64,000 bases of DNA, from contig CM000151.3 in the NCBI GenBank assembly GCA_000004695.1, positions 448,001 to 512,000 on the forward strand, in the 5' to 3' direction. Each line of letters starts with the position of its first letter. Position 1 is the stretch's first letter. The translations under genes were made by a program, and so were the position numbers. The DNA is from Dictyostelium discoideum (Eukaryota). The notes beneath the pieces are model-generated. The model searched no databases. It was given only the letters and a program-made list of their open reading frames with translations, and was not told where the DNA came from. Of the stretch, positions 2,131 through 64,000 are shown one piece after another.

Positions 2131-3393
2131 TTAATAAAAAATAATAACACTTATTGGATTTAAAAGATTTTTTAAAATTAATTTTGAAATAAATGATTTA
2201 TATCTTGATTTTGAAACATCTGAAGATTTCATAAATCTAAATAAAATTTGAGGATATAGTTTAGTTTCAAATATTGGCAATGTACCAATACCATTTATAG
2301 TCTTTTCTAATAATCTTGAATTGCAATATTCTAGTGAAGGTATAGATGGTTGATTTCGATAATATGATTCTAAAATTTTTTCATGAATTTGATTTGATTG
2401 AGAATTAATTTCTTCATTACTATCTTCATCATCATCATCATCAAATTTTAAAAATCTTAATGGATTATAATCAATATCAAACCCTACTGAATCATAATAA
2501 AATTTAATTAATTTTTTTAAATTAAAATCATCATATTCTAAATTAATTATATTTGATTTTAAATCTTTTTCTGAATATTTATTTTTAATTTCATTAATTT
2601 CTTCAATTGTTAAAATTGGTGGTGATGATGATGATGATTTTTTATTTTTTAAAAAAGGAAGGTTGATAATAATTATACACAAACCAATTAAAATTTCCAA
2701 ATCTGTATTTAAAACATCTTTTGGGAATATTGAATCCTTAAAAAATAAAAAATCTCTTATTTTTATTAGTGATATTAACCTTGGAATCTTTGATAACATT
2801 TTTATAATTAAGGATTTTTGAATTTTATTTGTCAATTTTTTCCACTCCATTGAGCATGGAAAATTATTATTTTCATCATTTTCATTAAGATATGTCAATA
2901 TGTCAATTGAGTTATTTTTTAATGCTTCATTAAAATAAAATTGATAATTATTGTTAACCAAAATACAATTATTATAATTATTATTATTATTATTAATATT
3001 ATTAGTTTCATTAAAGGTACTATTTTCATTGATTAAAACTAGGAAACCAACTAAACAATCATTTTCTATTGAACATTCTAATAATTTATTAAAATCAACC
3101 ATTGAGTAGTGTGGAATTAAATTTTTATAAATTTTAATGTTTTCTTCATTTATATTTTTAATTTTTTTAAAAACACAATCAAAATTATTGTAATTCTTAA
3201 AATTTAAAAATTCACAACGATTCAACTTTTCAATTAGTAAGGATTGATTATTTGAATTAATAATTTGGGATACATCATTGAAATCTTCATATTTAATTGT
3301 TCTAAATCTAATGTTTGAATATGAAATTATAATTTTAAATAAATATTTATTTTTTATTACTTTCCAAAATAAAATTTCTGTATTATCAGACAT
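2131..3393 (-). CDS. hypothetical N-rich protein, about 420 aa; true start probably MSDNTEILFWK at 3393, not the poly-K extension in the track
   Basis: Track ORF 2131..3561. The upstream 55 codons are poly-K/F from A/T homopolymers. The conserved paralog at 1..427 begins at the same MSDNTEIL methionine. Confidence 0.5.
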   Translation of the reverse strand: MSDNTEILFWKVIKNKYLFKIIISYSNIRFRTIKYEDFNDVSQIINSNNQSLLIEKLNRCEFLNFKNYNNFDCVFKKIKNINEENIKIYKNLIPHYSMVDFNKLLECSIENDCLVGFLVLINENSTFNETNNINNNNNNYNNCILVNNNYQFYFNEALKNNSIDILTYLNENDENNNFPCSMEWKKLTNKIQKSLIIKMLSKIPRLISLIKIRDFLFFKDSIFPKDVLNTDLEILIGLCIIIINLPFLKNKKSSSSSPPILTIEEINEIKNKYSEKDLKSNIINLEYDDFNLKKLIKFYYDSVGFDIDYNPLRFLKFDDDDDEDSNEEINSQSNQIHEKILESYYRNQPSIPSLEYCNSRLLEKTINGIGTLPIFETKLYPQILFRFMKSSDVSKSRYKSFISKLILKNLLNPISVIIFY

Positions 3394-3801
3394 TTTTAAA
3401 ATACAGAAATTAAAAAAATATAAAAGAAAAAAAAAAAAAAGATGTTCTTTTTTTTTTTTTTTTTTTGGCAAAACAACCTCCCCTCTTTTTTTTTTTTTTT
3501 TTTTTTTGAAATTTTTTTTTTTTTTTGAAATTTTTTTTTTTTTTTTTTTTTTTTTCATCACAATTATTATTTCTTATTTCATTGTTATTATTTTTTGAAA
3601 ATGTATAATTTAATTAATTTTTTTTAATACCACATAAACACAACAAGAAACACCACATCCAAATAATTGATTTTCAAATTTTATTTTTTTTCCTTGAAAA
3701 TTTATATTAAATAAATATTTACACCAACAAAAAAAAAGAAAAAAAAAATAATGTAATATAAAAATATTAAAAAAAAAAAAAAATCCATCTTATTGATGTT
3801 T

Positions 3802-10761: not shown

Positions 10762-11069
10762 TTTTATTGATAATAATGAAATAAAATAAATAAAAAAAAA
10801 AAAAAAAAATTAAAAATTAAAAATTAAAACCTAAAATTTGAAAAAAAAAATAAAAATAAAAAAAAAAATGAAAATAAAATAAAAATGAAAATAAAAAAAA
10901 ATGAAAAAACGAAAAACGAAAAAGGAATAAAATTTCTTTCTTTTTTTTTTTTTTTATAAACAAATATTTAAATATTTATAAAAAAAAAAAGAATTAAAAA
11001 AAGAAATAAAAAAAAAAAAAAAAAGATAAATTTATTGAGAGTTTATTAATTTTTTTTAACTTTTTTTAA

Positions 11070-12118
11070 TCAGCATATTTTAAAGTTATATTTTTTGGAA
11101 TTTGGAAAGGAATAATTGTTTGTTTTATTTTTCTTTGAATTATAATTTCAGATACATATTTAGGAATTGAATCAATAGTTAATTGTTGTTTTATATCACA
11201 TATTTCTAAGGTTTTGACACCTTCTGGTATTATACCGCAGGTTAATTTATTGGTTGAAATCCCATTCTAAATAAAATAAAACAATCTTACAAGTTTTGGA
11301 AATTGAATGAAAGGTAAATTCTTGTTTTTATATCACATTAAAAACAAAAAATACAACACCTTCTGGTAATATACCCTGCAGGTTTTTTTTTGATTGAATC
11401 CATTTAATAAATAAACAGCCTTTACAGAGTTGGGAATTGAATCAATAGTTAAATCTTGTTTTATATCACCTAAAAATAAGTTCTGAACACCTTCTGGTAA
11501 TATACCTTCAGATAATTTTTCTTTGAATCCATCTAAAAGCATTACATGACGAGGTATACTTTTTAAACTATTTATTCCTTTACAATTATTTTCTAAATGC
11601 AATACCATTTCTATAATTGTTATAATTTTTTAGAAATGAATGATTCTCTGAATAAATGTAATATTTTCTTGAAAAAACTAAATAATATATATATATATAA
11701 GTTAGCATTTTACAAAGTTATTAAATTAATTGATCGATATGATTATACATACATTTTATAATTAAATCATTTTCCTCCAATTCTATTATAAAATTGCGTT
11801 GGGAAATAACTTTATTCAATCTAACACTAGAATTATTATTTAAAAAATCAATAATATTATTATTACTATTATTATTATTTAATGAATAAATTAGTTTTAA
11901 ATTATCTTTTATATTATTAATTATATGATTATGGAAATCAATGGTCTGATTGTTGTATTCTTTTAACATATTTATAATATCAATACTATTATTATTAATT
12001 ATTTAATAATGTCAACGATTGGTGATATTTAATAATTATTTCAAATGTATTTCCATCTATTGAATAATTTTTAAAATCATTTTTCTTTTTGATAAAATCA
12101 TTTATTTTATCAATAATT

Positions 12119-12198
<80 letters not shown>

Positions 12199-12684
12199 GT
12201 TATTATTAATTATTGGTGATAGTATTTCAATATCATTATTTAATGATGAATTTAAAGTTTCATTTATTAATTGATTATTTTCAAATGTTGGTGTTAATTG
12301 TTTTTTAATATCTAATTCGATTTTTGAGAGTATATCATGAATTTTTTTAAATTCTTTTGTTACTAAATCATTATTATTGTTATATTGTAATTGAATTTTA
12401 TTGAAGGTTTTATTTGATTCATTTAAAATAAATTGATCATTCCCTATTCTATCAATTATTTTTGGATATATATTATCTTTAAAATTATTCATTAATAAAT
12501 TAATTTCTTTTGTTGATGATCCATCGATTTGATTGAATTTATGACCATGATGTTTATTATTTATTGAAATACATTCAATACAACATGGAATAAAATTACA
12601 ATCTAAACATAAAACCATTAAATCCTTTTTTGTATGTATTATACATTTAGTATTATTAAAATTTTCACTCTCTTTTGATATCAT
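11070..12684 (-). pseudogene. B-box zinc finger / FNIP-repeat gene, copy A, frame-disrupted (probable pseudogene)
   Basis: ATG at 12684. The B-box is [35 protein letters not shown]. An in-frame TAA and a +4 nt indel near 11990 disrupt it relative to copy B. The conserved CMY|GTATGT…TTATTTAG intron is present. The FNIP repeats ([25 protein letters not shown]) at 11100-11610 are broken by several indels. The C-terminal end …ITLKYAD* at 11070 is intact. Confidence 0.55.
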
Positions 12685-12719
12685 TTTGTGTTGTAACTGC
12701 TTTGGTTGTAAATCAAAAA

Positions 12720-12751
<32 letters not shown>

Positions 12752-12954
12752 CTCTTTATTTTTTAAAAATTTTGAGATTTAACAAGATTTCAAATTTGGT
12801 TTTTTTTTTTTTATTTATTCTTTTTTTTTTTTTTTTATTTTATTTCCAACAACATTTACTATTTATAAAAAAAAAAAAATAAAAAATAAAAAAAAAAAAA
12901 AAGAAATAAAATAAAAAAAAAAAATTTTAAAGAAAGAAAGAAAAAAAAAAAGTT

Positions 12955-13380
12955 GGTAATAAGTCCCAAAATTACCATAATAATTTCAGCCAGTTATTAG
13001 GCTGTATGGCTGCTGAAAATTACCATATTAATTTTGGCATGTGACAAATAAGATAAAAAAAAAGTATTAGAAAATTATAAATTGAAACAAATACAAAATA
13101 AAATGAAATCATTTAACAAAAAGAAATAAAAAAAAAAAAAGTTAAAAAAAAAAAAACAAGTATTAGAAACAAATGATAAAAATTTAAAACAAAATCAAAT
13201 GAAAAAAAAAAAAAAAATAAGTGTTATTGTCATTTAGATGCCAAGGAAATTAAAAATCTTAATTAAAAATCGAATACCAAAATTTATTTTTAAACAAAAT
13301 TTTATTAATAATTTATTAACTGAATGGTTAATTCTAATGTTGAGTAATATTTATTATTAAAAATGAAAAAATGAAAAAGG
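12955..13380. repeat. about 425-bp inserted segment in the B-to-A intergenic spacer, absent from the equivalent C-to-B spacer; contains internal direct repeats
   Basis: The spacers align on both sides (…aaaaaaaaaaagtt / aatttcatttaatttg…). Only this spacer carries the block beginning ggtaataagtcccaaaattaccataataatttcagc. A second copy gctgaaaattaccatattaattttggc lies about 40 nt further on. Three agtattagaaa-initiated about 45-bp units follow. Confidence 0.5.
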
Positions 13381-13459
13381 AATTTCATTTAATTTGAATT
13401 ATGTGAAAAGGATTTAGAATAAATTTATTTATTGAGAGTTTATTAATTTTTTATACTTT

Positions 13460-15048
13460 TTAATTATCTAAATATTTCAAAGTTATATTTTTTGGAATTT
13501 GAAATGGAATAATTGTTTGTTTTTGTTTCATTGGAATTATAATTTCACATACTGATTTAGGAATTGAATCAATAGTTAATTGTTTTATATCACATATTTC
13601 TAAGATTTTGACACCTTCTGGTATTATACCGGCGGTTAATTTTTGGTTGAATCCATCTAATAAATTAACATACTTTACAGATTTAGGAATTGAATCAATA
13701 GTTAGCTCTTGTTTTATGTCACCTAAAAACAAATTTTCCACACCTTCTGGTAATATACCTGCAGTTAATTTATGCTTGAATCCATCTAATAAATAAACAG
13801 ACTTTACAGATTTAGGAATCGAATCAATAGTTAAATCTTGTTTTATATCATATAAAGACAAATCTTCAATACCTTCTGGCAATATACCTGCAGTTAATTT
13901 TTGCTTGAATCCATCTATTAAATGAACAGAATTCACAGATTTAGGAATTGAATCAATAGTTAAATCTAGTTTTATATCACCTAAACTTAAAAAATTAACA
14001 CCTTCTGGTAATATACCTGCAGTTAATTTTTGGTTGAATCCATCCAATAAATAAACAAACTTTACAGAGCTAGGAATTGAATGAATAGTTAAATCTTGTT
14101 TTATATCACCTAAAAACAAAAATACAACACCTTCTGGTAATATACCTGCAGTTAATTTTCGATTGAATCCATTTAATAAATAAACAAACTCTACAGAGTT
14201 AGGAATTGAATCAATAGCTAAATCTTGTTTTATATCACCTAATAACAAATTTTTAACACCATCTGGTAATATACCTGCAGTTAATTTTTGATTGAATCCA
14301 TCTAATAAATAAACAGACTTTACAGAGCTAGGAATAGAATTAATAGTTAATTCTTGTTTTATATCACCTAAAAATAATCTATGAACACCTTCTGGTAATA
14401 TACCTTCAGATAATTTTTCATTGAACCCATCTAAAAGCATTACATTTAGAGGTATACTTTTTAAACTAGTTATACCTTTACAATTATTTCTAAATGCAAT
14501 ACCATCTTTATCATTGTTATAATTTTTTAGAAATGAGTGATTCTCTGAATAAATGTAATATTTTCTTGAAAGAACTAAATAATATATAAGTAAAGTTATT
14601 TAAATAATTAATCGATATGATCATATACATACATTTAAATATTAAATTATTTTCTTCTGATTCTATTATAAAATTACATTTGAAATTTTTGAAAATAACT
14701 TTATTAACTCCAATAATAAAATTAATAAAATTAATTTCATAATTATTATTATTATCATTATTTAAAAAGTCAGTAATATTATTATTATTATAGTTATTAT
14801 TATTATTATTTTTTAATGAATAAATTAGTTTTAAATTTTCTTTTATATTATTAATTAAATGATTATCGAAATCAATGGTCTGATCGTTGTATTCTTTAAA
14901 CATATTTATAATATCGATACTATTATTATTATTTAATAATGTCAATGATTGTTGATATTTTTTAATAATTTCAAATGTTTTTCCATCTATTGAATAATTT
15001 TCAAAATCATTTTTATTTTTGATAAAATCATTTATTTTATCAATAATT

Positions 15049-15137
<89 letters not shown>

Positions 15138-15289
15138 ATTAATTTGATCATTTTTGAAATCATTATTATCAACGTATATATGATTGTTATCATCAATTGA
15201 TGGATGAAAAAATGATTGAATTTGAAAAAGAACATCTGCTATTGGTCTTTCTTCAAGTTGTGATTTACCAATTGATAAATTATTATTAA

Positions 15290-15349
<60 letters not shown>

Positions 15350-15813
15350 ATAGTATTTCAATATCATTATTTATTGATGAATTTAAAGTTTCATTTATTA
15401 ATTGATTATTTTCAAATGTTGTTGTTAATTGTTTTTTAATATCAAAATCAATGATTGAGAGTATATCGTGAATTTTTTTAAATTCTTTTGTTACTAAAAC
15501 ATTATTATTGTTATATTGTAACTGAATTTTGTTATAAGTTTTATTTGATTCATTTAAAATAACTTCATTATTGCCTATTCTATCAATTATTTTGAAAATA
15601 TATTTCTTTAAAATTATTCATAAATAAAATAATCTCTTTTGGTGGAGAATCATCGATTTGTTTGAATTTATGACCATGATGTTTATTATTTATTGAAATA
15701 CATTCAATACAACATGGAATAAAGTTACAATCTAAACATAAAAGTATTAAATCCTTTTTTGTATGTATTATACATTTAGTATTTTTAAAATTATCATTCT
15801 CTTTTGATATCAT
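13460..15813 (-). CDS. B-box zinc finger / FNIP-repeat protein, copy B; 2 exons (15813..14633, 14574..13460), but with an apparent 2-nt frameshift near 15600 (possible pseudogene or sequence error)
   Basis: The start is [48 protein letters not shown] (B-box). The frame hits TGA after …[12 protein letters not shown]. Homology to copy A then continues in the +1 frame ([17 protein letters not shown]…). The phase-1 intron TTTAAAT|GTATGT…TTATTTAG|TT (58 nt) joins to a clean 13.5-repeat FNIP domain (13460..14440). Confidence 0.55.
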
Positions 15814-15855
15814 TTTGTGTTGTAACTGCTTAAAAAAAAAAAAAAAAAAAAAAAT

Positions 15856-15894
<39 letters not shown>

Positions 15895-16179
15895 CATAAT
15901 CTTTTAAAAATTTTGAGATTTAACAAGATTTAGATTTGGTTTTTTTTTTTTTTTATTTCTTTTTATTTATTTATTTTTTTCCAATAACAATTTTTTTTTG
16001 CAAAAAACAAAAACAAATAATAAAAAGAAAGAAATTAAAAAAAAAAAAAAAAAAAAAATAAATAATAAAAAGAAAAAAAAAAAGTTTTGGAAAATTAATT
16101 GGAAAACACTAAATTTCATTTAATTTGGATTATATAAAAAGGATATAGAATAAAATTTTTTATTGATGGTTAATTAATT

Positions 16180-16500
16180 TTTTTATCTTTTAATCTAAAC
16201 ATTTTAAAGTAATATTTTTTGGAATTTGGAAAGGAATAATTGTTTGTTTTAGTTTTCTTTGTTCACATACAGATTTTGGAATTGAATCAATTTTTAATTT
16301 TTGTTTTATATCACATATTTCTAAGATTTAAACACCTTCTGGAATTATGCCTTTAGTTAATTTTTGGTTGAATCCATCTTATAAATTAAAATACTTTACA
16401 GATTTTGGAATATAATCAATAGTTAAATCTTGTTTAATGTCACCTAAAAATTCAGAATTTTGTGACGACAACAAGGTTTGAGATTTAACAAGATTTAACT
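16180..16500 (-). pseudogene. truncated third copy (C) of the FNIP gene: last about 2 FNIP repeats fused directly to 5'UTR-like sequence
   Basis: Bases 16190-16440 match the 3' terminal repeats and 3' flank of copies A and B. Bases 16480-16500 carry the ttgagatttaacaagattt element. That element otherwise lies just upstream of the ATG of A (12775) and of B (15915). Confidence 0.5.
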
Positions 16501-26533: not shown

Positions 26534-30175
<3,642 letters not shown>

Positions 30176-48547: not shown

Positions 48548-48959
48548 CAATTGATAATCCATGTGGATATGTAAATTGAGAATTGTAATAATAATACACC
48601 AAAACCAATACAAGCAAACATAAAAATTAGAAGTAATAAAGTAGGGTCTATTTCTAAAAATGTTAACGTTTCTTTCTGGGAATAATAAAATTTCAAATAA
48701 AAACATCGATAATAAACCCAGGAATATCCTTTAATAAAATAGTTAAAAATTTAAAATTAAAATTACACACACACATATATATATTTAATAGATTAATAAA
48801 TTGTTACTATAATAAAATTTTTAAAAACATATACAATTTTCCTTTTAAAAATAAAGTCTTTTTTTATGAAAGTAACATTCAGACATTATTATTATTTATT
48901 TTTTTTATTTATTTATTTGTTTATTTCAATTAAATTAAATTTTTAATATTTATAAATAG

Positions 48960-50210
48960 TTCTTCGTCTCCAATTTCATTTGGTATTTGGAAATTTGGTT
49001 CTTTTAAATAATTTATTAAAATTGTTCTAATCTTGGAACTACACGGGAAAAAACACAATAAAATCCATTTTTATCTTTAAAACCGCGGTCACCAGAATTA
49101 TAATACCCTTTGGATTTTATGAATAATTGTTTATTTTTCATTATTTTTATAAAATGAAATTGCAAAACTTGATGGTATTGGTAATTTAAATGAAAATCCA
49201 CCAATTTCATTCTCATTTACCAACTCTGGTGAAAGTATTGATGGTTTAATGAAAATTGAAGGTACACCACCTACTTCATTATGAATGGGATCATTTTATA
49301 TTTTGTTCATTACCAAAATGCTTGATATTCCAATTTCACTCTGACCATACCCTCTTGAACGTTTTACTTTAATTTTAATTTCAAAGAAATCTGAAATTGA
49401 TTCATCAATAATTTCGTGACCAGTACCAATAAACTTGATAAATTATAGGTTGAATGTAAATTCACGGGTATTTGGAAAGTGTGTGGACCAGTGAATGCGA
49501 CGGATACTTTATGTTTTTCAATTGTTTTCCAAAATAAATCTTCAAGTTTTTGAATTGTTAAAGAGCCCATACCAGTATAGCAAAAGAATGTTAAAATTAA
49601 CTTGTTTGATAAAAGTGTACTACTGTGGTATTTCAAACAAACCAAATATGAAACATTACCTCTAACAATTGGTTGAATCTCTTGTAAAAACTATATATAA
49701 TGGATGACTTGAATTAACTGAAACATATTCATAAAATGGTTTTGTTGATTTTCTTTGATTCTATTTATTTCTAAATCCAAATTTAAAGAATTTGGTATTG
49801 GTTTTGTACTTTTAAAATTATAAAACAGATTCCAATTAAATAGCCATTATCATCATTTCTATAATGGGTAATTGCTAGAATTGGTTTAAAATTTTATATG
49901 TCAATTGCTTTGTTTAATTTTGATGTTATATAAATTTATTAATGAATAATCAATGCTACTTGATCCCTTTTTATTGGATTATTTATATGAACTATTTAAT
50001 TTACCACCTTGAAACCAATCAGGATAAATTTCATCACTACTATAAATTTTATCCAAAAATAATAAAAAACAATTATTAGAACAAAATAAATAATTTAATT
50101 AATTGTTTATAACTTACCAATAAATATATTTCTTTGCAACCTCATCCCAAGATTCATTTGGTTTAGTATTTATTATAATTTTCAAAATTAAATGGATCAC
50201 TTAATTTGTG
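48960..50210 (-). pseudogene. decayed AMP-dependent synthetase/ligase (acetyl/acyl-CoA synthetase-like) pseudogene
   Basis: Minus-strand fragments lie in different frames and are separated by stops. They are …SWDEVAKKYIYW (followed by GTAAGTT…TTTATAG) then TSDEIYPDWFQGGKLNSSY (compare ACS WFEDGTLNLCYN), …KHKVSVAFTGPHTFQIPVNL, RGYGQSEIG, and YYNSGDRGFKDKNGFYCVFSR (compare Y.TGD…DGY.wi.GR). Confidence 0.5.
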
Positions 50211-51180: not shown

Positions 51181-54100
51181 ATGGATATGAAATTAAATGA
51201 TATTGAAAATGAAAATTTTATAAATCAAATGAAAGGTGTTGCAATTGTTGGTATTGGATTTAGAATCCCTTCTGGTAATAGTGAAAATTCAATTAGTTCA
51301 CCAGATGATTTATTTAATAATTTAAAGAATGGTTTTGATGGTGTTAGTAGTACATCAGAAAGATGGAGTGACAATTACCACAAGTTGGGTGAAATTAGTA
51401 GTCCAAATGCAGGTTTATTACCATTAAATGAATGGAAATCATTCGATCCATTATTTTTTGGTATTAATCCATCCGATGCTCATCATATTGATCCTCAACA
51501 AAGATTATTATTAAAATGTACATGGGAAGCATTAGAAGATGCATCTATCGATCCAATTTCAATTCGTGGTACAAATACTTCAGTTTTCATTGGCTCATCA
51601 ACTATTGATTATTTACATGCAAATAAACATCCAGATCTTATTTTAAAGAATGCTATTGGTTTTTCACCAAGTACTTTATCAAATAGAATTTCATACTGCT
51701 TCGATATCCATGGTCCTTCATTATCAATTGATACAGCTTGCTCATCATCAATGAATGCTGTTACTCAAGGTTATCACTCAATATTAAATGGTACTTCCAA
51801 TATGTCTATTGTTGGTGGTGTAAATTTTGTAATAGGTAAGAATTCTTATATTCTTGTGATTAATTATAATTATAATTTATTTTTAAATTATTAACTATTT
51901 TATTTATTTATTCATACTAGATGTTGAAACAATAAAAGGTTTTTCATATTTAAATATGTTAAGTAAAACACATGGTAAATGTAAAGCATTTGATGAAAGT
52001 GGTGATGGTTTTACACGTGGTGAATGTGCTGGTGTTGTAGTTTTAAAGAAACTTGATGATGCTATTAGAGATGGTAATAGAATTTATTGTATAATTAATG
52101 GTATAAGTTCAAATATTGATGGTAATGGAATTGCTGATAAGGCCAACTTTTATTCACCATCAAAGCAATCACAATTTAATAATATTAATTTAGCATTTAA
52201 ATCAACCAATGGTAAAATTTCAGTAAATGACATTCAATATATCGAAGCACATGGTACCGGTACTAAAACAGGTGATCCAATTGAAACTGAAGCAATTTCA
52301 ATGGCTTTTAAAAATAGAGATAAATCAACACCAATTCTAATTGGTTCAATTAAAAGTAATATTGGTCATTGTGAAGCTGGTTCAGGTGTTGTATCATTAA
52401 TCAAATGTTGTTTAATGTTTAAATATCAATGCTTTTTACCAAATATTCATTTCAAAAATCCAAATCCATTAATTAAATTCAATGAATGGAATTTAAAAGT
52501 TGTAACATCACCAATTCCATTCAACAGAAATAATGAAAAATCAGTTTCAATGATGATTAATAACTTTGGTGTTACTGGTTCAAATTGTTGTTTACTTATT
52601 TCAGAGTTTAAAAAACAAGATTATGAATCATATGAAAACAACATCGGCAGTATTAATAAAAATATATTAGTGCCATTCTCAGCAAATTCTCCAAAGTCAT
52701 TGGACCAATACCAATCAAAAATCAAAAATATAATTAATAATCAATTCAATTTTATTGATTTTGCAAATAACCAAATTTATTCAAAATCAAATTATCTTTA
52801 TCAAAGATCAGTTGTAATAGCAAATAATTCAAATGATCTTGTTAATAAAATTTTAAATAAAAAACATATTCAAACTAAAAATCCAATCATTTCAAATATG
52901 TCATTCAAAGGAAAGAATCCAATTACAATTTTTGTTTTTTCAGGTCAAGGATCACAATATCCTAAAATGGCTTTAGAATTATATAATAATGAAGTAATCT
53001 TTAAAAAATCAATTGATTTAATCGATTCAAAATTATCAAAATACTATGGTTATTCAGTTTTAGAAAAATTAAGATCGATTGGAGATGATGATACTACTTC
53101 CATTCATGATCCAACTATTGCACAACCAGCAATGTGTATGTTTTCAGTATCATTATTTGAATTATATAAACATTGGGGAGTAAATCCTTCATTTATTCTT
53201 GGTCATAGTCTTGGTGAAATCCCAACCTCATATTGTTCTGGAATGATTGATTTAGATACATTCTGTTATACAGTTTATCAAAGATCAATAGCACAAACTA
53301 AAACACATGGTAATGGTAGAATGTTATCAATCAATATTAGTGATGAAGAATTTAAATCAATGTATTCTCAAAAGTATCCACAAATTGAAATTGCGTGTTA
53401 TAATTCACCTCAATCAATTGTTGTGGCAGGTAATGAATCAATATTAAATGAAATTTCAAAAGAATTAAAAGAAAAAGAAATTTTCACTGCAATGTTAGGT
53501 TCATTATCATCATTCCATACAAGTAGTCAACAATGTACAAAAGATAGTATATTACAACTAAACATTGAAAGTAAAAAATCAAAAGTACCAACATTTTCAA
53601 CAGTTACAACAAATTTATTCAACGAATCAGATCCATTTAATTCACAGTATGTTTATGATAATATTATTAATCCAGTTAAATTCACACAAACAATTTCAAA
53701 TATTTATAAACATATCGAATCAAATCAATTAGATAATGATATTGTATTCATTGAAATTGCACCACATCCAACATTATCATTTTATATTAAACAAATGGTA
53801 CCATCAAGTTTAAATGAATCAGTTTCAGTTTATTCAGCACTTCACAAGAAAAAGAATGATGTCGAAGAGTTTCAACAAACCATTTCAAATTTATATTGTC
53901 AAAATGGATATAATATTAATTTTAAATGTCAATTTAATAATAAAAAATCAAATCAAAAAATTAATTTACCACTTTATCAATGGGATGACGAATTATATTT
54001 CGCTCAAACTCAAGTACTCGAACAACATAGAAAAGAAGGACCACCAATTGACCATCTTGGTCTATCAAACTCTTATTATTCACCATTTAAAAATTCATAT

Positions 54101-57100
54101 AGGACATTTATTGATATAAAGAATAAACCATTTCAATATCTAAAAGGTCATATGGTTAAAGGTAAATACTACTTCCCAGGTTGTGGTTATATTGATAATA
54201 TTATTCAGCTTTATAAAAATCAAGATATTTTTATTAGTTTTATTGAATTTAAAACACCATTAATTTTAATTGAGGGTATCAATCAATGTTTACAGACAAA
54301 CATTCAACAAACTGGTAAAAGTGAATATCGTGCACAATTTCATTTCAAAGATCAAAAATCAAATGAATGGATTCAATCATCAAATGCAAATTTCCAATTA
54401 TTAGATCACACTATTGAAATGCCACCAAAGTATAATATTGAAGAAATTATTAAAAACAAATGTACGTTGGCAAGATTAACAAAGAATGAAATTTATACTC
54501 ACATAAAATCAAAAACTGGTTTAAATTATACTGCAATGTTTCAAGGTGCTACTGAATGTTATATAGGTGTAGATTGTACATTATCAGTTGTATCAATTGA
54601 ATCTCAAACAAATTCATTTTTAAATATACCAATTTTAGATTCAGTTTTCCATGGTAACATTTCTTTAATAAATGATCAATGTCAAATTGTATTTGATAAA
54701 GTTCATGGGTTAAAGTACTATTCATCAAATATTCCAAATGATTATAAAGATAAATCAGTTTATGTATATGCAAAATTAAAATCAAAGACAAGTGATTCAT
54801 ATTCAGCTTCATTTACTGTACTATTATCGGATGGTACAGTTGTATATGAAATTGATGAAGCATTCAGTAAATCTTTAATTCCAATTAAAGAATTACTTAA
54901 AATTGAATATCCAAATGATGAATTATTTTCAATTAATTTACAACCAAAAGATTCTCCAATTCCAGCTCCTTCAACTTTCAAATCCCTAATTTATGAAAAT
55001 GATCGTTTCAATGCTGAACCACCAATGGTAGAGAATCTCTTTCAATACATTTCAACAATATTTTATAAAAATATTATAAATAGATGTCCAGAAATTAATA
55101 TTGATATAATTAAATCTTTAAGTATTGATGAAATTATTTCAAATTTCAGTAAAATTTCAAAACATGAAAGATTATTTAAATATGTTTTTGAAACTATAAA
55201 AGAGAATGGTATTCTTAATAGTTTGGAAGAAAAAGATGATACTTACTTTGTATTTAATGAAGTACTTATCAAATCATCAAGAGTTATTTCAAAATTATTA
55301 TTCCCATTAGAAAATGATAATGATAATGAAGATACACCTCAATTATTATTTCAAAATGGTTTAATGGATAAAGTTTATAAATGCAGATATTTAAAAAATA
55401 AGAATCAAATGATTGCCCATATTATTAAACATTCAATTAAAGAGATTATTAATAATAATATTATAATTAGAATTTTAGAATTTGGAGGAGGTACTGCATC
55501 ATTATCAGTTGAAGTTATTGAAGAAATCGTTACATTACTTCAAGAGAATCCAAATTATCAAGTTGAAATCGAATATACATGGAGTGATATTTCGCCTGCA
55601 TTCATAGTAGATACAAAGAATAAAATCAATAAAATCATTAAAGGTGCTGGTATAACAAATGGATTAAATGTTATTTATCATCCATTAACAATTGATGAAT
55701 CATTGGTAGAACTTCAATCAATCAAACCATCATATTATGATTTTGTTATAATGTCAAATGTTCTTCATGTTGTTAAAGATATTAAACAAGCTGTAGAACA
55801 AATGTATCAATTGTTAATACCAAATGGTCAATTACTTTTTGTTGAACCCCCTTATAAATCAATAATATGTGATAGTTTATTTGGTTCATTTGAACAATGG
55901 TGGGCATTCACTGATACTGATATTAGAAAAGATCATTGTTGTCTTTCTCAAGATGGTTGGTATAAATTATTGAAATGGTCAAACTTTGAAAGTATTGAAA
56001 TGTCAACTGAAAGTAAATTCATGGGATCAGTTATCCAAGCACAAAAACCATCATTTACATCATTAATAAATCAACAACCAAAGTATGATAATATTATTAT
56101 TTTTGGTAACAATTGTCCAAACTTTATTGATAATATTAAACCATTTTCAAATTTCAATGAGTTCATTCAAATTGAAACTATTCAAGAATTTGATCAACTA
56201 ATTAACAAATCAACAATTACAAATGATTCAATCATTTATTTCATAAAATCAATTAATCAGTTATCTTTGGATAATTATAAACAAGCAACTCTTGAATATA
56301 TTGAAATCAATCAAAAACTATTACAAATTAATAGTTTATGTAAACATGTATTAATTGTTAATGATTCAAGAAAAACCAACTATTTAGCATCATCAATTGT
56401 TGGTGCTGCAAGATACTTTGATGAATTCCAACAATTGAAATTACATACATTAGATTTTGATTATGATTCAACCCAAAATTATTTAATTTCAAAAAATAAC
56501 AAAATGGTTCAATTCATTAATAACTTGATAGACTCCAAAACAAATGTTCATAAAGAAATGATTATAATTAATAACAAAGTATATTATGAAATAGTTCAAA
56601 AAGAGAAAAATCTAAAATTAAAATACAATTCAGAATCTTTCGAACAACAAGATAATTTAATGTGTTCATTATCACCAAATTTAGAATATCAATTACAATC
56701 AAAACAAATTAAATTAAGAGATAATCAAGTTGAAGTTAAAACAATTGCAACTGGTATCAATAATAAAGATTACTTAGTTTATAGTGGTTTAGAAGGTAGT
56801 GTTAATTCAAATACACCACAATTTGGATATGAATTTTCAGGTATAATAACAAGAGTTGGTAATAATGTAAAAGATTATAAAGTTGGTGATAATGTATTTG
56901 GTTTATCAAATTCTTGTACATCATCCAATATTATTGTGAATCATGAAAGAATTCAAATAAAACCTTCAAACATAAGTCATATTGAAGCAGCATCAATTCC
57001 AATTGATTATTTAACATCATTTATGAGTTTATTCAATGTTGGTTGTTTAAATATTGAAGATAATGAATCAATTTTAATTCATTTAGGTAGTGATAGTTTT

Positions 57101-58804
57101 GGGTTATCAACATTTGAAATATTAAAATGGAAAGGTTTTAAATCAAATTTATTCGTTACAGTTAATTCGGATGAAATTAAACAATATCTTTTAAATAATT
57201 ATGGTGATTTAATAACTGCAATTTATTCAAACACAGATAAAGGTTATGTAAGTCAAATTAAAAATAAACTTATTGAACAAGGCTCAAATGATAATGGAGT
57301 AGATTTAATATTAAATACATTACCAAGTGATTTTATGGATTCAAATTTCCAATTGTTAGCAATTAATGGTAGAATTATAGATTTATCAAATGATCATTTA
57401 AACCAAAGTGAATATATGAAAAATGTAAACTTTACTCTTAATCGTGGTTATCATAATTTTGATTTAATGTCACAAAGAAATTCAAGAATCAATAGAAGTT
57501 TATTAACCATTTCAAAAGCAATTGAAAATGGTGAATTAAAATTAATTCCAATTAAAGAATTTTCAAACTCTGATATTAATGATGCAATTGAATTTATTAT
57601 TGAAGAGAATAGAATTGATAAAATTGTAGTTAGTCATGATCATGAAGTTTATCAAGAACTCTATGCTAAATTTTCAAATGAAAATGATTTTTCAATATTA
57701 AAATCAAATTATCAAATTAATTCAAATAATTTAGGTAAAAATATATTAATTACCGGTCAATCAGGTATTATTTTAGAAATATTAAAATGGATCATTAAAT
57801 ATTCAAATATTAACACAATAGAAAATGTTATTATTCTTTCAAGATCATCATTAAAATGGGAATTAGAATTATTAATTAATCAAACCAAACTATCAAATAA
57901 TAATATTAAATTCCATTTCAAGAGTGTTGATGTTGGTGATAGTGAACAAGTTGATAATGCAATCAATGAAATATTAAATGAAAATCAAGAAATTATAAAT
58001 ATTCATTCAATATTCCATTTTGCATTTACCCAAATTGCATGTAAAGTTCAAGAAATCAATATGAAACATTTAGATATTTCACACGGAGCAAAAACAATGG
58101 GAGCAATTAATTTACATAATCAATCAATTAAACGTAATTGGAAATTAATTAATTTTGTGATTTCGTCATCAATTGCCTCTCTTGTTGGTTCAACAGATCA
58201 GTGTTCATATGTTTGTGCAAATGCATTATTAGATTCATTTTCAAAATATAGAGTATCTCTTGGACTACCATCAACATCTATTAATCTTGGTGCAATTGAA
58301 TCAACTGGTTTCGTTTCAAAGAATGAATCGATTTCAGTATTTTTAGATGGCAGTGGTATTATTCCAACACCAATCAATCAAGTTTTAGGCCTTTTAGATT
58401 TACAAATTCAAAACCCTGGTAAATTTACAAATTCAATGGTTGCTAAATTTAATCCATTAAACTTTTCAAATAATGAACAAATTAATCTTTTATTAAAAAT
58501 GGATTACATTTTCAATTTACATTCTAATGGATATACTAAAGTAAAGGAGAGTGCTGGAAGTAAAAATGTTGATGAATTGTTTATTAAAAAAATATCAGAT
58601 TTATTCTCAATTGATGAATCTAAAATAAATAAGGATATTAGATTAATCGATTATGGCGCAGACTCATTAGTTATCGTTCAATTAAAGAATTGGGTTGACC
58701 AAGAAATTGGATTTAATTTAATTACAATTCAACAACTTCAAAATAATACAATTAATGTTTCAATTAAAATAATTTTAAATTTTTTGAAAAAGATAAATAA
58801 ATAA
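51181..58804 (+). CDS. type I iterative polyketide synthase (KS-AT-DH-cMT-ER-KR-ACP); 2 exons (51181..51835, 51921..58804)
   Basis: KS motifs are DTACSSS, EAHGTGT and [12 protein letters not shown] motifs are [14 protein letters not shown] and GHSLGE. DH motif is [17 protein letters not shown]. The methyltransferase motif is [14 protein letters not shown] motif is ILITGQSGIILEILKW. ACP motif is IDYGADSLVIVQL. The phase-1 intron is GTAATAG|GTAAGA…CATACTAG|ATGTTG, 85 nt. It joins [34 protein letters not shown]. Confidence 0.9.
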
Positions 58805-59456
58805 GAATAAAAAAGATAAACAAATAAAAATAAAAAAAATTAAAAAAATGGTGGTCAAAAAAAAAAAAAAAAAAAAAAAAAAATTTAATCAAATAATAAA
58901 AAATAATAAAAAAAAAAAATTTAAAAAAAAAAAATAAATTTAAAAAAATTTAATCAAATAATAATAAAAAAATTTTTTATTGTCACTATTTTAAATTTAT
59001 TTTTTTTTTTTTTTATTAAAAAAATTTATTTTTTGAAAACCAATTTTTTTTTTTTTTTTTTTTTTTTAAAAATAATGTGTACACCACACAACATAATAAC
59101 TGTGCATTTTTTTAAACCTTTTTTTTTAAAAAAAAAAAATAAACAAATTTGTATTAATTTTTTTTTTATTTTTTTATTTTAACAAAATACCACAATTTAG
59201 AAACCAAAAAAAAAAAGCAAAGTGGTTGAAAATTTTTTGTAACGAAAAATGTACACAAAATCAAATAAAAATAACAGTTTGATGTTTTTTTATCCCCCAA
59301 ATTTTACCCCCACCAATAAGTGTTTTATTGTAATAAAATAGATACATTAAAAAAAAAAAAAAAATTGCAATTTAATTAATGTATCTATTTTTTTAATTAA
59401 AAAAAAAAATAACATTTAATTTTAATAATATTAATAAGTAAAATAACTAAATCCTT

Positions 59457-62400
59457 ATGAATAATTTAAAAAATATAGATTTAATAGAGAAAGGTGTTGC
59501 AATTGTTGGTATTGGATTTAGAATTCCTTCTGGTAATAATGAAAATTCAATTTGTTCACCAGATGATTTATTTAATAATTTAAAGAATGGTTTTGATGGT
59601 GTTAGTAGTACATCAGAAAGATGGAGTGACAATTACCACAAGTTGGGTGAGATTAGTAGTCCAAATGCAGGTTTATTACCATTAAATGAATGGAAATCAT
59701 TCGATCCATTATTTTTTGGTATTAATCCATCTGAAGCATCTTTAATCGATCCACAACAAAGATTATTATTAAAATGTACATGGGAAGCATTAGAAGATGC
59801 GTCAATTGATCCAATTTCAATTCGTGGTACAAATACTTCAGTTTTCATTGGTGCTTCAAATATAGATTATCAACATACAAATAAACACCAAGACTCAGTT
59901 TTAAAAAATGCAATAGCACAATCCACCTGTGCAATTTCAAATAGAATATCATATTGTTTCGATTTTAATGGTCCATCATTATCAATTGATACTGCATGTT
60001 CATCATCATTAAATGCAGTTTCTCAAGGTTATCATTCAATATTAAATGGTACTTCTGATATCTCAATTGTTGGTGGTGTAAATTTAATATTAGGTAAGGA
60101 TTATATTTTAATTGTATATATTTTAAATTAAAAATACACTCATTAATTAATTTTTTATTTAATTTATTTTATCAGATGTTGAAATGACAAAGGCATATTC
60201 GTATTTAAGCATGTTAAGTAAAACACATGGTAAATGTAAAGCATTTGATGAAAGTGGTGATGGTTTTACACGTGGTGAATGTGTCGGTGTTGTAGTTTTA
60301 AAAAATTTACAAGATGCAATTAAAGATGGTAATAGAATTTATTGTGTAATTAATGGTTCAAGTTCAAATGTTGATGGTAATGGTAATATGGATAAAGTTA
60401 ACTTTTATTCACCATCAAAACAATCACAATTTAATAATATTAATTCAGCATTTAAATCAACAAATGACAAGCTCTCAATTAATGATATTCAATATATCGA
60501 AGCACATGGTACTGGTACTAAAACAGGTGATCCAATTGAAACTGAAGCAATTTCAATGGCTTTTAAAAATAGAGATAAATCAGCACCAATTCTAATTGGT
60601 TCAATTAAAAGTAATATTGGTCATTGTGAAGCTGGTTCAGGTGTTGCATCATTAATCAAATGTTGTTTAATGTTTAAATATCAATGCTTTTTACCAAATA
60701 TTCATTTCAAAAATCCAAATCCATTAATTAAATTCAATGAATGGAATTTAAAAGTTGTAACATCACCAATTCCATTCAACAAAAGAAATAATGAAAAACC
60801 AGTTTCAATGATGATTAATAACTTTGGTGTAACAGGTTCAAATTGTTGTTTACTTATTTCAGAATTTAAAAATAACAATAACTTTAAAGAGAATATTAAT
60901 TTAGAATCTCAAAGTGTTAATGATAGAGTGTTAATACCATTCTCAGCAAATTCATCAAATTCATTAAATCAATACCAATCAAAATTTAAAAATATAATTA
61001 ATAATCAATTCAATTTTATTGATTTTACCGCAATTCAAATTTATTCAAAATCAAATTATCTTTATCAAAGATCAGTTGTAATTGCAAGTAATTCAAATGA
61101 ACTTTTTGAAAATATCTCAAATAAAAAACAAATTCAAACTAAAAATTCAATTATCTCAAATATGTCATTCAAAGGAAAGAACCCAATTACAATTTTTGTT
61201 TTTTCAGGTCAAGGATCACAATATCCTAAAATGGCTTTAGAATTATATAATAATGAAGTAATCTTTAAAAAGTCAATTGATTTAATCGATTCAAAATTAT
61301 CAAAGTACTACGGTTTTTCAGTATGGGAGAAGGTAAAAACAATCAAAGATGATGACTTAACCTCAATACATGATCCAATTTTTGCCCAACCAGCACTATG
61401 TATGATTTCAGTATCACTATTTGAATTATATTACCATTGGGGAGTAAATCCATCATTTATTCTTGGTCATAGTCTTGGTGAAATTTCAGCATCATATTGT
61501 TCTGGAATGATTGATTTAGATACATTCTGTTATACAGTTTATCAAAGATCAATAGCACAATCTAAAACAAATGGTTGTGGTAGAATGTTATCAATTAATA
61601 TCAGTGATGAAGAATTTAAATCAATGTATTCTCAAAAGTATCCACAAATTGAAATTGCGTGTTATAATTCACCTCAATCAATTGTTGTGGCAGGTAATGA
61701 ATCAATATTAAATGAAATTTCAAAAGAATTAAAAGAAAAAGAAATTTTCACTGCAATGTTAGGTTCATTATCATCATTCCATACAAGTAGTCAACAATCT
61801 ACAAAAGATAGCATATTACAACTAAACATTGAAAGCAATCAACCAAAAGTACCAATATTTTCAACAGTTACAACAAATTTATTTAATGAATCAAATCGAT
61901 TTAATTCACAATATGTTTATGATAATATTATCAAACCAGTTAAATTCACACAAACAATTTCAAATATTTATAAACATATCGAATCAAATCAATTAGATAA
62001 TGATATTGTATTCATTGAAATTGCACCACATCCAACATTATCATTTTATATTAAACAAATGGTACCATCAAGTTTAAATGAATCAGTTTCAGTTTATTCA
62101 GCACTTCACAAGAAAAAGAATGATGTCGAAGAGTTTCAACAAACCATTTCAAATTTATATTGTCAAAATGGATATAATATTAATTTTAAATGTCAATTTA
62201 ATAATAAAAAATCAAATCTAAATATTGAATTACCTCTTTACCAATGGAGTGACGAATTATACTTCGCTCAAAATCAAGTACTTGAACAACATAGAAAAGG
62301 AGGACCACCAATTGACCATCTTGGTCTATCAAACTCTTATTATTCACCATTTAAAAATTCATATAAAACACTTATTGATATAAATTATAAACCATTTCAA

Positions 62401-64000
62401 TATCTTAAAGGTCATATGGTTAAAGGTAAATACTACTTCCCAGGTTGTGGTTATATTGATAATATTATTCAACTTTATAAAAATCAAGATATTTTTATTA
62501 GTTTTATTGAATTTAAAACACCATTAATTTTAATTGAAGGTATCAATCAATATTTACAAACAAACATTCAACAAACTGGTAAAAGTGAATATCGTGCACA
62601 ATTTCATTTCAAAGATCATAAATCAAATGAATGGATTCAATCATCAAATTCAAATTTCCAATTATTAGATCATGGTAATGATATACCATCAAATTATAAT
62701 ATTAAAGAAATTATTAAAAACAAATGTAATTTGAGCAAATTAACAAAGAATGAACTTTATAAAAATATTAAATCAAAAACTGGTTTAAATTATACTGGAG
62801 TTTTTCAAGGTGTTACTGAATGCTATATAGGTGATAATTGTACCTTATCAGTTGTATCTTTAGAATCTCAAACAAACTCATTTTTAAATATACCAATTTT
62901 AGATACATGCTTACACGGAATGTTAATATTAATAAATGATCAATGTCAAATTGTATTTGACAAAGCCATTGGATTTAAATATTATTCATCAAACATACCA
63001 GCAGATTTTAAAGAAAACAAAGATAGTTTTTATGTTTATTCCAATCTTAGACCAAGAGTAGGTGGTGATTCATACCATGGAACAATTATAGTAATGTTAT
63101 CAGATGGTTCAGTTTTATATGAAATTGAAGAAGTTGTTTGTAAATCATTAATTCCAATCAAAGATTCACTTAAAATTGAATATCCAAATGATGAATTATA
63201 CAAAGTTCATTTACAATCAAAAGATTCTCCAATTCCAACACCATCATCATTCAAATCAATTATTTATGAAAATGATTTCTTTCAATCTTCACTTAATATT
63301 CCAGAAGATTTATTCAAATATATTTCAACATTATTTTATAAAGATATTATAAAAAGATGTCCAGAAATTAATATCAATAAAATTAATTCTCATAGTGTTA
63401 ATGAAATTATTTCAAGTTTCAGTAAAATTTCAAAACATGAAAGATTATTTAGATTTGTATTTGAAACAATAAAAGAGAATGGTATTCTTAATAGCTTCGA
63501 AGAAAAAGATGACACTTACTTCGAATTTAATAAAGTAATTATCAAATCATCAAGAATTATTTCAAAATTATTATTTCCATTAGAAAATGATAATGATAAT
63601 GAAGATTTACCTCAATCATTATTTCAAAATGGTTTAATGGATAAAATTTATAAATGCAGTTATTTAAGAAAGAAGAATCAAGTGATTTCACATGTCATTA
63701 AACATTCAATTAAAGAGATTATTAATAATAATATTATAATTAGAATTTTAGAATTTGGAGGAGGTACTGCATCATTATCAGTTGAAGTTATTGAAGAAAT
63801 CGTTACATTACTTCAAGAGAATCCAAATTATCAAGTTGAAATCGAATATACATGGAGTGATATTTCACCTGCATTCATAGCAGATGCAAAGAATAAAATC
63901 AATAAAATCATTAATGATGCTGCTATAACAAATGGATTAAATGTTATTTATCATCCATTAACAATTGGTGAATCATTGATAGAAACTCAATCAATTAAAC
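59457..64000 (+). CDS. second type I polyketide synthase, tandem paralog of 51181..58804; 2 exons (59457..60093, 60176..beyond window end), partial
   Basis: The N-terminus [27 protein letters not shown] and the KS domain are about 88 percent identical to the first PKS. It has the same phase-1 intron position (ATATTAG|GTAAGG…TTATCAG|ATGTTGAAATG). The downstream frame stays open through AT, DH and methyltransferase motifs to position 64000. Confidence 0.9.

Follow-up and report, generated by a model that had tools for sequence, protein, structure and literature searches.

The locus described here raises the question of how two neighbouring genes can be identical over hundreds of nucleotides (nt) and clearly different in the adjoining segments. 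It lies in a stretch of 64,000 nt from the genome of Dictyostelium discoideum AX4 (the window, with a G+C content of about 22%), of which positions 51181-64000 were analysed; all coordinates below are window positions. This region carries two polyketide synthase (PKS) genes, pks5, which is complete in the window, and pks6, of which the window contains about the first 60%. A first-pass annotation, made from the DNA sequence alone, had described them as a pair that arose by recent duplication followed by ongoing gene conversion. We consider, with a probability of about 90%, that the mosaic similarity of pks5 and pks6 results from interlocus gene conversion between old tandem paralogs, and that neither selective constraint nor a recent duplication nor an artefact of the assembly explains it.

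The algorithm blastn returned a single collinear alignment between the two genes (51231-55727 against 59489-64000), with 89.6% identity over 4538 nt. The identity is not uniform along this alignment and varies from 60 to 100% in windows of 100 nt. A scan for maximal-scoring segments detected seven near-identical tracts, all on the plus strand, that represent together 1513 nt with 11 mismatches, the rest being 83.1% identical. Tract 1 (51296-51473, partner 59554-59731, 1 mismatch in 178 nt) belongs to the N-terminal part of the KS domain and tract 2 (52232-52525, partner 60487-60780, 3 mismatches in 294 nt) to its C-terminal half, including both catalytic histidines. Three tracts are located in the AT domain: tract 3 at its start (52892-53040, partner 61156-61304, 2 mismatches in 149 nt), tract 4 (53339-53534, partner 61603-61798, no mismatch in 196 nt) and tract 5 in the C-terminal part (53672-53954, partner 61936-62218, no mismatch in 283 nt). 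Tract 6 (54143-54385, partner 62407-62649, 5 mismatches in 243 nt) covers the N-terminal half of the DH domain with the motif HxxxGxxxxP, and tract 7 (55424-55593, partner 63697-63866, no mismatch in 170 nt) covers the S-adenosylmethionine-binding motif of the methyltransferase (MT). Tract 5 is also the longest exact run of the alignment (283 nt). When the 501 differing columns were placed at random in 5000 permutations, the longest exact run had a mean of 57 nt and never exceeded 121 nt.

The segments located between the tracts have a different aspect. The linker between KS and AT (52527-52740, partner approximately 60782-61004) displays 76-82% identity, and the C-terminal half of DH with the linker that follows it (54616-55060, partner approximately 62880-63330) displays 67-77%. 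Divergence is also seen at the end of exon 1 with the intron and, beyond the end of the window, in the stretch between MT and ER, a part of ER, the C-terminus of KR and the ACP. The similarity of the genes does not extend outside the coding sequence: the upstream DNA is about 50% identical and the introns are 60% identical. The sliding-window comparison therefore bears out the mosaic and non-uniform divergence announced by the first-pass annotation, and most of its figures were recovered. The block 53695-53955, said to be essentially identical, has 260 identical positions of 261 and falls in the 283-nt exact run, and the KS-AT linker 52610-52900, said to be 75-80% identical, has a value of 79.8% (partner 60868-61164). 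For the methyltransferase block 55380-55720, near-identity was found and a 170-nt exact run lies inside it, but the value is 94.7% instead of about 97% and the partner is located at 63653-63993, about 13 nt away from the position given.

Over the window, the proportion of synonymous differences (pS) between pks5 and pks6 is 0.197, with values from 0.00 to 0.67 in groups of 40 codons. These differences are over-dispersed, the index being 4.13 for the observed data and 0.85 in 10,000 permutations (maximum 1.83), and the longest run of codons without any synonymous difference reaches 99 codons, for a maximum of 92 in 10,000 permutations. In 200 near-identical codons, pS between pks5 and pks6 is only 0.008, whereas between species the same codons differ by 0.22-0.31 (0.31 with D. 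firmibasis and 0.23 with D. citrinum). These codons are therefore neither mutational cold spots nor positions where silent sites are constrained. At the other extreme, the 495 most divergent codons have a pS of 0.44 between pks5 and pks6, a value similar to the 0.42 obtained between pks5 and its D. firmibasis counterpart (Df75). According to the proportion of nonsynonymous differences (pN) in the divergent codons, pks5 is nearest to Df75 and pks6 is nearest to the D. citrinum gene. Between species, pN is 0.06 in the near-identical tracts and 0.14-0.20 elsewhere. The profile of pS along pks5 and pks6 correlates at rho 0.59 with the profile in the D. firmibasis pair and at rho 0.35 with the between-species pN. 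The ratio pN/pS of the divergent blocks is about 0.42, equal to that of the whole gene; positive selection in these blocks is not supported, as the ratio is not above 1.

For phylogenetic trees of blocks of the alignment, homologous loci were added from three lineages that are more divergent and carry the label D. discoideum or D. cf. discoideum, from D. firmibasis, with three genes, and from D. citrinum, with a single gene. In order to reduce circularity, the blocks were defined from the D. firmibasis paralog pair alone. The low-pS blocks place all the genes labelled D. discoideum in one clade with a bootstrap value of 100%. The high-pS blocks separate the pks5 types and the D. firmibasis genes, on one hand, from the pks6-9 types and the D. 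citrinum gene, on the other hand, with 100% for each group. The same conflict is observed when domains are used as blocks. The tree of KS and AT shows a species-type clade at 99%, and the tree of the C-terminal half of DH and its linker (amino acids 1041-1386) shows an ortholog-type split at 98%. From the conflict between blocks and the pattern of pS, we conclude that the split between pks5 and pks6-9 is older than these species and that copying between paralogs subsequently produced the identical tracts.

The two genes do not constitute an isolated pair, contrary to what had been assumed from the window. Sequence past the end of the window was taken from the near-identical strain ACTFIT (GCA_054883475.1, locus L003), in which the second gene extends to a full pks6 of 2924 amino acids. 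On the ACTFIT contig, pks6 is followed on the same strand by a PKS gene coding for 2513 amino acids, by pks8/35, by pseudogene fragments of KS and AT, and by a PKS gene coding for 2931 amino acids. The genes pks5 and pks6 thus open an array that comprises at least five paralogs on one strand and a pseudogene, and the three additional paralogs share in the exchange. One member has a product identical to AX4 pks8/35. Identity to pks5 is about 88% for every one of the four other members, which reach about 95% among themselves; after them, the D. discoideum PKS proteins that come closest do not exceed 57% identity. The mosaic observed between pks5 and pks6 is mostly repeated between pks5 and the other three members, with local exceptions. 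Tract 2 shows 98-100% identity throughout the five paralogs. Between 52966 and 53110, the third gene is nearer to pks5 (95% and 91% in adjacent windows) than to pks6 (83% and 79%). In the KS-AT linker (52527-52740), two sequence types circulate in the family; from 52527 to 52660, pks6 is 100% identical to the fifth gene and 81% identical to pks8. For the quartet of pks5, pks6, pks8 and pks9, the three possible topologies are backed by 50, 63 and 42 sites that are grouped in runs, one of which comprises 29 consecutive sites (52615-53134).

The comparison of lineages indicates that exchanges also took place after their separation. Between AX4 and a lineage diverged by about 4%, 39 sites have a state common to both paralogs of one lineage and absent from both paralogs of the other, for 12 sites with the control pattern. 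These sites are clustered, with 39 runs for 74 expected, fewer than in all 5000 permutations. A third lineage gives 34 sites for 6 control sites, and the two closest divergent lineages give only 17 for 11. In the strain ACTFIW, the counterparts of pks5 and pks6 share 93-99% identity in the KS-AT linker, and in tract 5 the identity is 85-88% between species and 98-99% between the two D. firmibasis paralogs. Gene conversion between paralogs, as suggested by the first-pass annotation, is strongly supported by three kinds of observations, namely the mosaicism of synonymous sites, the conflict between block trees and the substitutions shared in a strain-specific way. The qualification of conversion as ongoing stands for lineages diverged by about 4-5%, and no event was seen between near-identical laboratory-type strains. 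The support for continued conversion thus concerns evolutionary time and not the present.

The following scenario best accounts for these data. The lineages of pks5 and of pks6-9 separated before the split between D. discoideum, D. citrinum and D. firmibasis. Later, homologous recombination between misaligned tandem copies repeatedly copied stretches of about 150-300 nt from one paralog to another, probably for the most part without crossover, and the likely molecular route would be repair templated by a paralog. Copying succeeded mostly in the catalytic cores (C-terminal half of KS, AT, N-terminal half of DH and methyltransferase motif I). The linkers, the C-terminal half of DH, the MT-ER stretch, a part of ER, the C-terminus of KR, the ACP, the intron and the promoters escaped conversion and kept the old divergence. 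The confinement to the cores may be explained because the constraint on the protein keeps the copies similar enough there to recombine, while the segments that have diverged are no longer converted. Selection against conversion in the segments that determine specificity is possible but is not required by the data. We also propose, as a tentative extension that we hold to be rather improbable, that conversion is structured by domains: the same cores would be homogenised in the five D. discoideum paralogs and, independently, in the D. firmibasis pair, and fixed islands (the KS-AT linker, the C-terminal half of DH, the MT-ER stretch, the C-terminus of KR and the ACP) would resist.

Among the other explanations, the one that survives best, although it is improbable, is repeated unequal crossing-over in the array, which would create chimeric genes and change the number of copies. 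The number of copies indeed differs, since pks5 has no downstream PKS in D. cf. discoideum ACTFIY, D. firmibasis has three array genes, only one gene of the family was found per D. citrinum strain in a protein search, and the D. discoideum array includes a KS-AT pseudogene. However, seven short tracts alternate with divergent blocks in a single pair of genes; each of them would need two precise crossovers, the flanking genes are in order, and neither the promoters nor the spacer were exchanged. Slightly less probable again is a recent duplication specific to the lineage, after which the islands would have diverged fast. This history is implied by published KS-AT trees, from which species-specific expansions of PKS genes were inferred (Sucgang et al. 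2011), and it agrees with whole-gene identities that are higher between paralogs of one species (87.9% for pks5 and pks6, 86.8% for Df75 and Df76) than for any pair between species (at most 84.8%). Against it, the synonymous divergence of the islands (0.44) is as high as between species, and positive selection would not raise it; moreover, pN/pS is far from exceeding 1 in the islands and the orthologous groupings obtain 98-100% bootstrap. The recent duplication formulated by the first-pass annotation is for the same reasons set aside for pks5 and pks6, the unconverted blocks being as divergent between them as between pks5 and its D. firmibasis counterpart and grouping by orthology at 100%. A recent duplication is plausible for the pks6-9 subgroup, whose members are about 95% identical.

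Uneven purifying selection alone, where the identical blocks would simply be the most constrained parts of the proteins and no exchange would have occurred, is very improbable. The near-identical tracts do coincide with catalytic cores where the between-species pN is lower, but the silent sites are homogenised as well, at codons that differ between species, and the tract trees group the sequences by species at 100% when the other blocks group them by ortholog. Finally, an assembly artefact in which one gene was assembled twice, for which nothing speaks beyond the general difficulty of assembling AT-rich repeats, can practically be dismissed: the copies differ at 11% of positions, with different N-termini, introns and promoters and one additional C-terminal domain, a pks6-type gene comes after a pks5-type gene in each of three independent assemblies, and the independent ACTFIT assembly reproduces the locus (window positions 41151-64000) at 99.83% identity, with six substitutions and otherwise only gaps in the length of homopolymers.

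Several observations weigh against gene conversion between the paralogs, or limit its strength. The sequence alone does not distinguish conversion without crossover from repeated unequal crossing-over. The comparison of all differences between the near-identical AX4 and ACTFIT over 22.8 kb revealed no conversion event. The pairwise-homoplasy (PHI-type) test was weakly informative, its window being too wide for 155 informative sites. No sign of GC-biased conversion was detected, as the G+C content at third codon positions (GC3) is not enriched in the converted windows, where it is 0.108, for 0.119 in the divergent ones (rho -0.03). The partitions used for pS were picked from the data themselves; the definition of blocks from the pair of another species reduced this circularity, and the boundaries of the blocks are approximate. 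Of the array, the comparison covered the third gene from 1.5 kb onwards and the fifth gene short of its end. To these points is added the AX4 state of a small cluster of substitutions at 54465-54474, which matches no paralog or other lineage compared, while the ACTFIT state resembles the other lineages. This cluster, in the DH region of pks5, consists of four substitutions in 10 nt (ACGTTGGCAAGA in AX4 and AACTTGACAAAA in ACTFIT). It is the sole coding difference between the two strains, which differ besides by two intergenic substitutions and homopolymer lengths, and it could correspond to a sequencing error in one assembly, to a multi-nucleotide mutation or to conversion from an unsampled donor.

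The gene models agree in their organisation. The gene pks5 is on the plus strand, at 51181-51835 and 51921-58804, and codes for 2512 amino acids without internal stop. Its exon 1 (51181-51835, N-terminal part of KS) is an open reading frame (ORF) ending at a GT splice donor at 51836, its intron (51836-51920, 85 nt, bounded by GTAAG and TAG, 60% identical to that of pks6) gives the exact database protein when excised, and its exon 2 (51921-58804, stop codon included) is supported by Pfam matches and catalytic motifs. The spliced product is identical over 2512 of 2512 amino acids to DDB_G0271520 (UniProt Q86JI5, "probable polyketide synthase 5" of D. discoideum AX4). The spacer between the genes (58805-59456) measures 652 bp, and it is outside the repeated unit, as the alignment stops at the stop codon of pks5 and restarts about 30 nt inside pks6. 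The gene pks6, also on the plus strand, comprises exon 1 (59457-60093, an ORF with a splice donor at 60094), an intron (60094-60175, 82 nt) and exon 2 from 60176 to past 64000, with 1487 codons open to the end of the window. Exon 2 is cut there, and about 4.3 kb more lie beyond; the ACTFIT gene (18274-27130 of L003) is identical to the window over 4544 shared bases and its model codes for 2924 amino acids with this single intron. Both introns are bounded by GT and AG, are in phase 1 and split the same aligned codon. The first-pass annotation was thus correct in announcing two same-strand genes about 650 bp apart with the same intron position. We name the second gene pks6 by its position, its length being taken from the ACTFIT gene call; a protein search with the pks6 fragment returned neither pks6 itself nor any protein of about 2900 amino acids. 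For the unnamed members of the array, the names pks6, pks7 and pks9 would likewise follow from the order and the length of the genes.

The domains of pks5 were located by conversion of amino acid positions, so that their limits on the plus strand are approximate: KS to 52453, AT at 52928-53881, DH with its motif near 54149, C-methyltransferase at 55466-55993, ER at 56720-57631, KR at 57746-58300 and ACP at 58544-58798. Pfam matches on this gene were obtained for KS, AT, MT, ER, KR and ACP, with one copy of each domain. KS is recognised by ketoacyl-synt (E value 1.8e-65) and Ketoacyl-synt_C (3e-30), and the catalytic cysteine and the two histidines are found in both genes, with motifs that include DTACSSS and EAHGTGT. 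AT is recognised by Acyl_transf_1 (1.1e-42) with the motif GHSLGE, and ACP by ACP_SdgA_C (7.7e-32) with the motif GADSL. For the reducing set and the C-methyltransferase, the matches are to KR, MT, ADH_N and ADH_zinc_N_2. The domain DH has no Pfam match in pks5 and only weak sub-threshold ones in pks6 (PS-DH, 9.8e-5), but the HxxxGxxxxP motif is present in both. The catalytic motifs of KS, AT, DH, MT and ACP are intact in both genes. At its C-terminus, pks6 contains a reductase domain (R) of the thioester-reductase type (NAD_binding_4, 1.6e-52) that pks5 does not have. A decayed copy of this domain was sought with tblastn downstream of pks5, of the third gene and of pks8, and none was found. 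Judging from these domains, pks5 and pks6 are single-module (iterative) type I PKSs, probably highly reducing, with the order KS-AT-DH-cMT-ER-KR-ACP, to which pks6 adds the C-terminal thioester-reductase.

The nucleotide-binding stretch of ER reads LIHLGSDSFG in pks5 (amino acids 1937-1946, about 57074-57103) and LIHLGRDGFG in pks6 (amino acids 1939-1948, beyond the window). The usual sequence at this place ends with GGVG. With this departure, the ER activity of both enzymes appears doubtful. The product of pks5 has seven conjugated double bonds, which would agree with a weakened ER.

Published work (PMC9618038) establishes that pks5 makes dictyodenes A and B, the yellow pigment of the spores; they are polyunsaturated 17-hydroxy acids of C18 that carry a single methyl branch. 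The same article describes an expression of pks5 in the cup cells of the fruiting body and a suppression of premature spore germination by the dictyodenes. A later study (PMC12625978) extends the range of Pks5 products and ties a few features to pks7. In the papers searched, pks6 is mentioned solely because its transcript level is altered in a mutant. In the accessible parts of these two articles (PMC9618038, PMC12625978), no discussion of the mosaic relation of pks5 to pks6-9 was found, and the strings "duplicat" and "paralog" are absent from PMC12625978. The statement that the product of the locus was beyond inference holds for the sequence alone, but it does not hold for pks5, whose dictyodenes are published (PMC9618038). 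For pks6, the reductase domain suggests a reductive release, and the product may leave the enzyme as an aldehyde or an alcohol.

The 45 PKS genes of D. discoideum are reportedly often found in clusters of 2 to 5 very similar genes, with promoters that diverge far more than the coding sequences. The locus described here, a cluster of similar genes with divergent promoters, matches that description. In the KS-AT trees of Sucgang et al. (2011), few orthologs were found between species, and the terms "gene conversion" and "concerted" are absent from their text. Here, the KS-AT tree also groups the sequences by species (99%), but the other domains recover an older orthology. Owing to this conflict, a part of the apparent lineage-specific expansion in the pks5-9 subfamily is to be attributed to concerted evolution. 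In practice, trees based on KS and AT overstate how recent and how lineage-specific the expansions of Dictyostelium PKSs are and, if conversion is structured by domains as proposed above, the lineage-specific expansion deduced from such trees would be partly an artefact of concerted evolution.

Gene conversion among modules is well documented in the assembly-line PKSs of bacteria, and Jenke-Kodama et al. left the case of Dictyostelium open. As in bacterial modular PKSs, recombination homogenises KS and other cores while other segments are distinct, and the trees of domains group by cluster and not by function. The difference is that the bacterial modules belong to one assembly line, whereas the genes studied here are separate single-module iterative synthases in a eukaryotic tandem array. 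Classical cases of mosaic conversion in tandem duplicates are the human gamma-globin genes, RHD/RHCE and the opsin arrays. The PKS locus shares with them old duplicates, short tracts with a pS near zero and unconverted islands of ancient divergence, but it differs by the very large size of its genes (7.6-8.9 kb) and their multi-domain structure, so that the map of tracts can be read domain by domain. No paper on gene conversion among Dictyostelium PKS genes was found in a literature search, an absence that is no proof. The genes and the process being known, conversion in pks5-9 is a new and well-supported instance of concerted evolution of a textbook type.

The rules that govern the product of iterative PKSs (chain length, methylation, reduction) are not yet readable from sequence, and the locus constitutes a natural experiment in this respect. 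It associates pks5, whose product is known, with four close paralogs where the cores are near-identical and the islands and the release domain differ, which narrows the location of specificity and suggests joints for chimeras. If selection does keep the islands distinct, they would map where chain length, reduction and release are programmed in iterative synthases, and would indicate natural boundaries for swaps in engineering.

The content of the array varies between lineages. In D. cf. discoideum (GCA_054859205.1, L007 17633-27632), pks5 is present without pks6, and the genes that come after it are unrelated, among them a TgrO1-like gene and a transposase fragment. In another genome (GCA_054859385.1, L006 18361-26542), the counterpart of pks6 is called as two genes of 278 and 2331 amino acids, which suggests a disruption. 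The truncated pseudogene copy on the ACTFIT contig, 3' of pks8 (L002 17944-19441), consists of KS and AT fragments called as genes of 116 and 331 amino acids, which match the beginning of pks5 and of pks6 with 89-94% identity. The product of pks8 carries two AX4 locus names, DDB_G0271618 and DDB_G0295667 ("pks8/35"). This double name fits the known large duplication on chromosome 2 of AX4, and an edge of this duplication may fall inside or beside the PKS array.

The upstream neighbours of pks5 are genes for a family-B DNA polymerase, a myotubularin-type phosphatase and a PAP2 protein. Just upstream of pks5 on the minus strand (48939-50210) lies a decayed gene similar to acetyl-CoA synthetases (AMP-binding), with no ORF above 93 amino acids. 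A tblastx comparison with the intact D. firmibasis gene of 649 amino acids shows similarity in dispersed pieces and changing frames. That intact AMP-binding gene is located between two of the PKS genes of D. firmibasis, and from this position an acyl-activating enzyme may once have belonged to the PKS cluster.

Other repeated sequences were observed elsewhere in the window. At 27916-29017, about 361 imperfect GTT triplets (69% matches) are located inside a minus-strand ORF of 1213 amino acids (26534-30175). They cause an extreme GC and AT skew at 26-30 kb, and the run that they would encode, composed mainly of a single amino acid, would be very long even by Dictyostelium standards. The region 11030-16461 contains a tandem repeat of 129-134 nt (43 amino acids), with 6.9 copies at 13550-14434, 2.8 copies at 11163-11536 and related copies near 16112-16461. 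Duplicated segments with 84-92% identity connect 11.0-12.9 kb with 13.4-16.1 kb and overlap minus-strand ORFs, and they may correspond to a small family of repeat-containing genes. Finally, a direct repeat of about 500 nt with 93.4% identity, whose copies are about 3 kb apart (2-499 and 2968-3466), also overlaps minus-strand ORFs.

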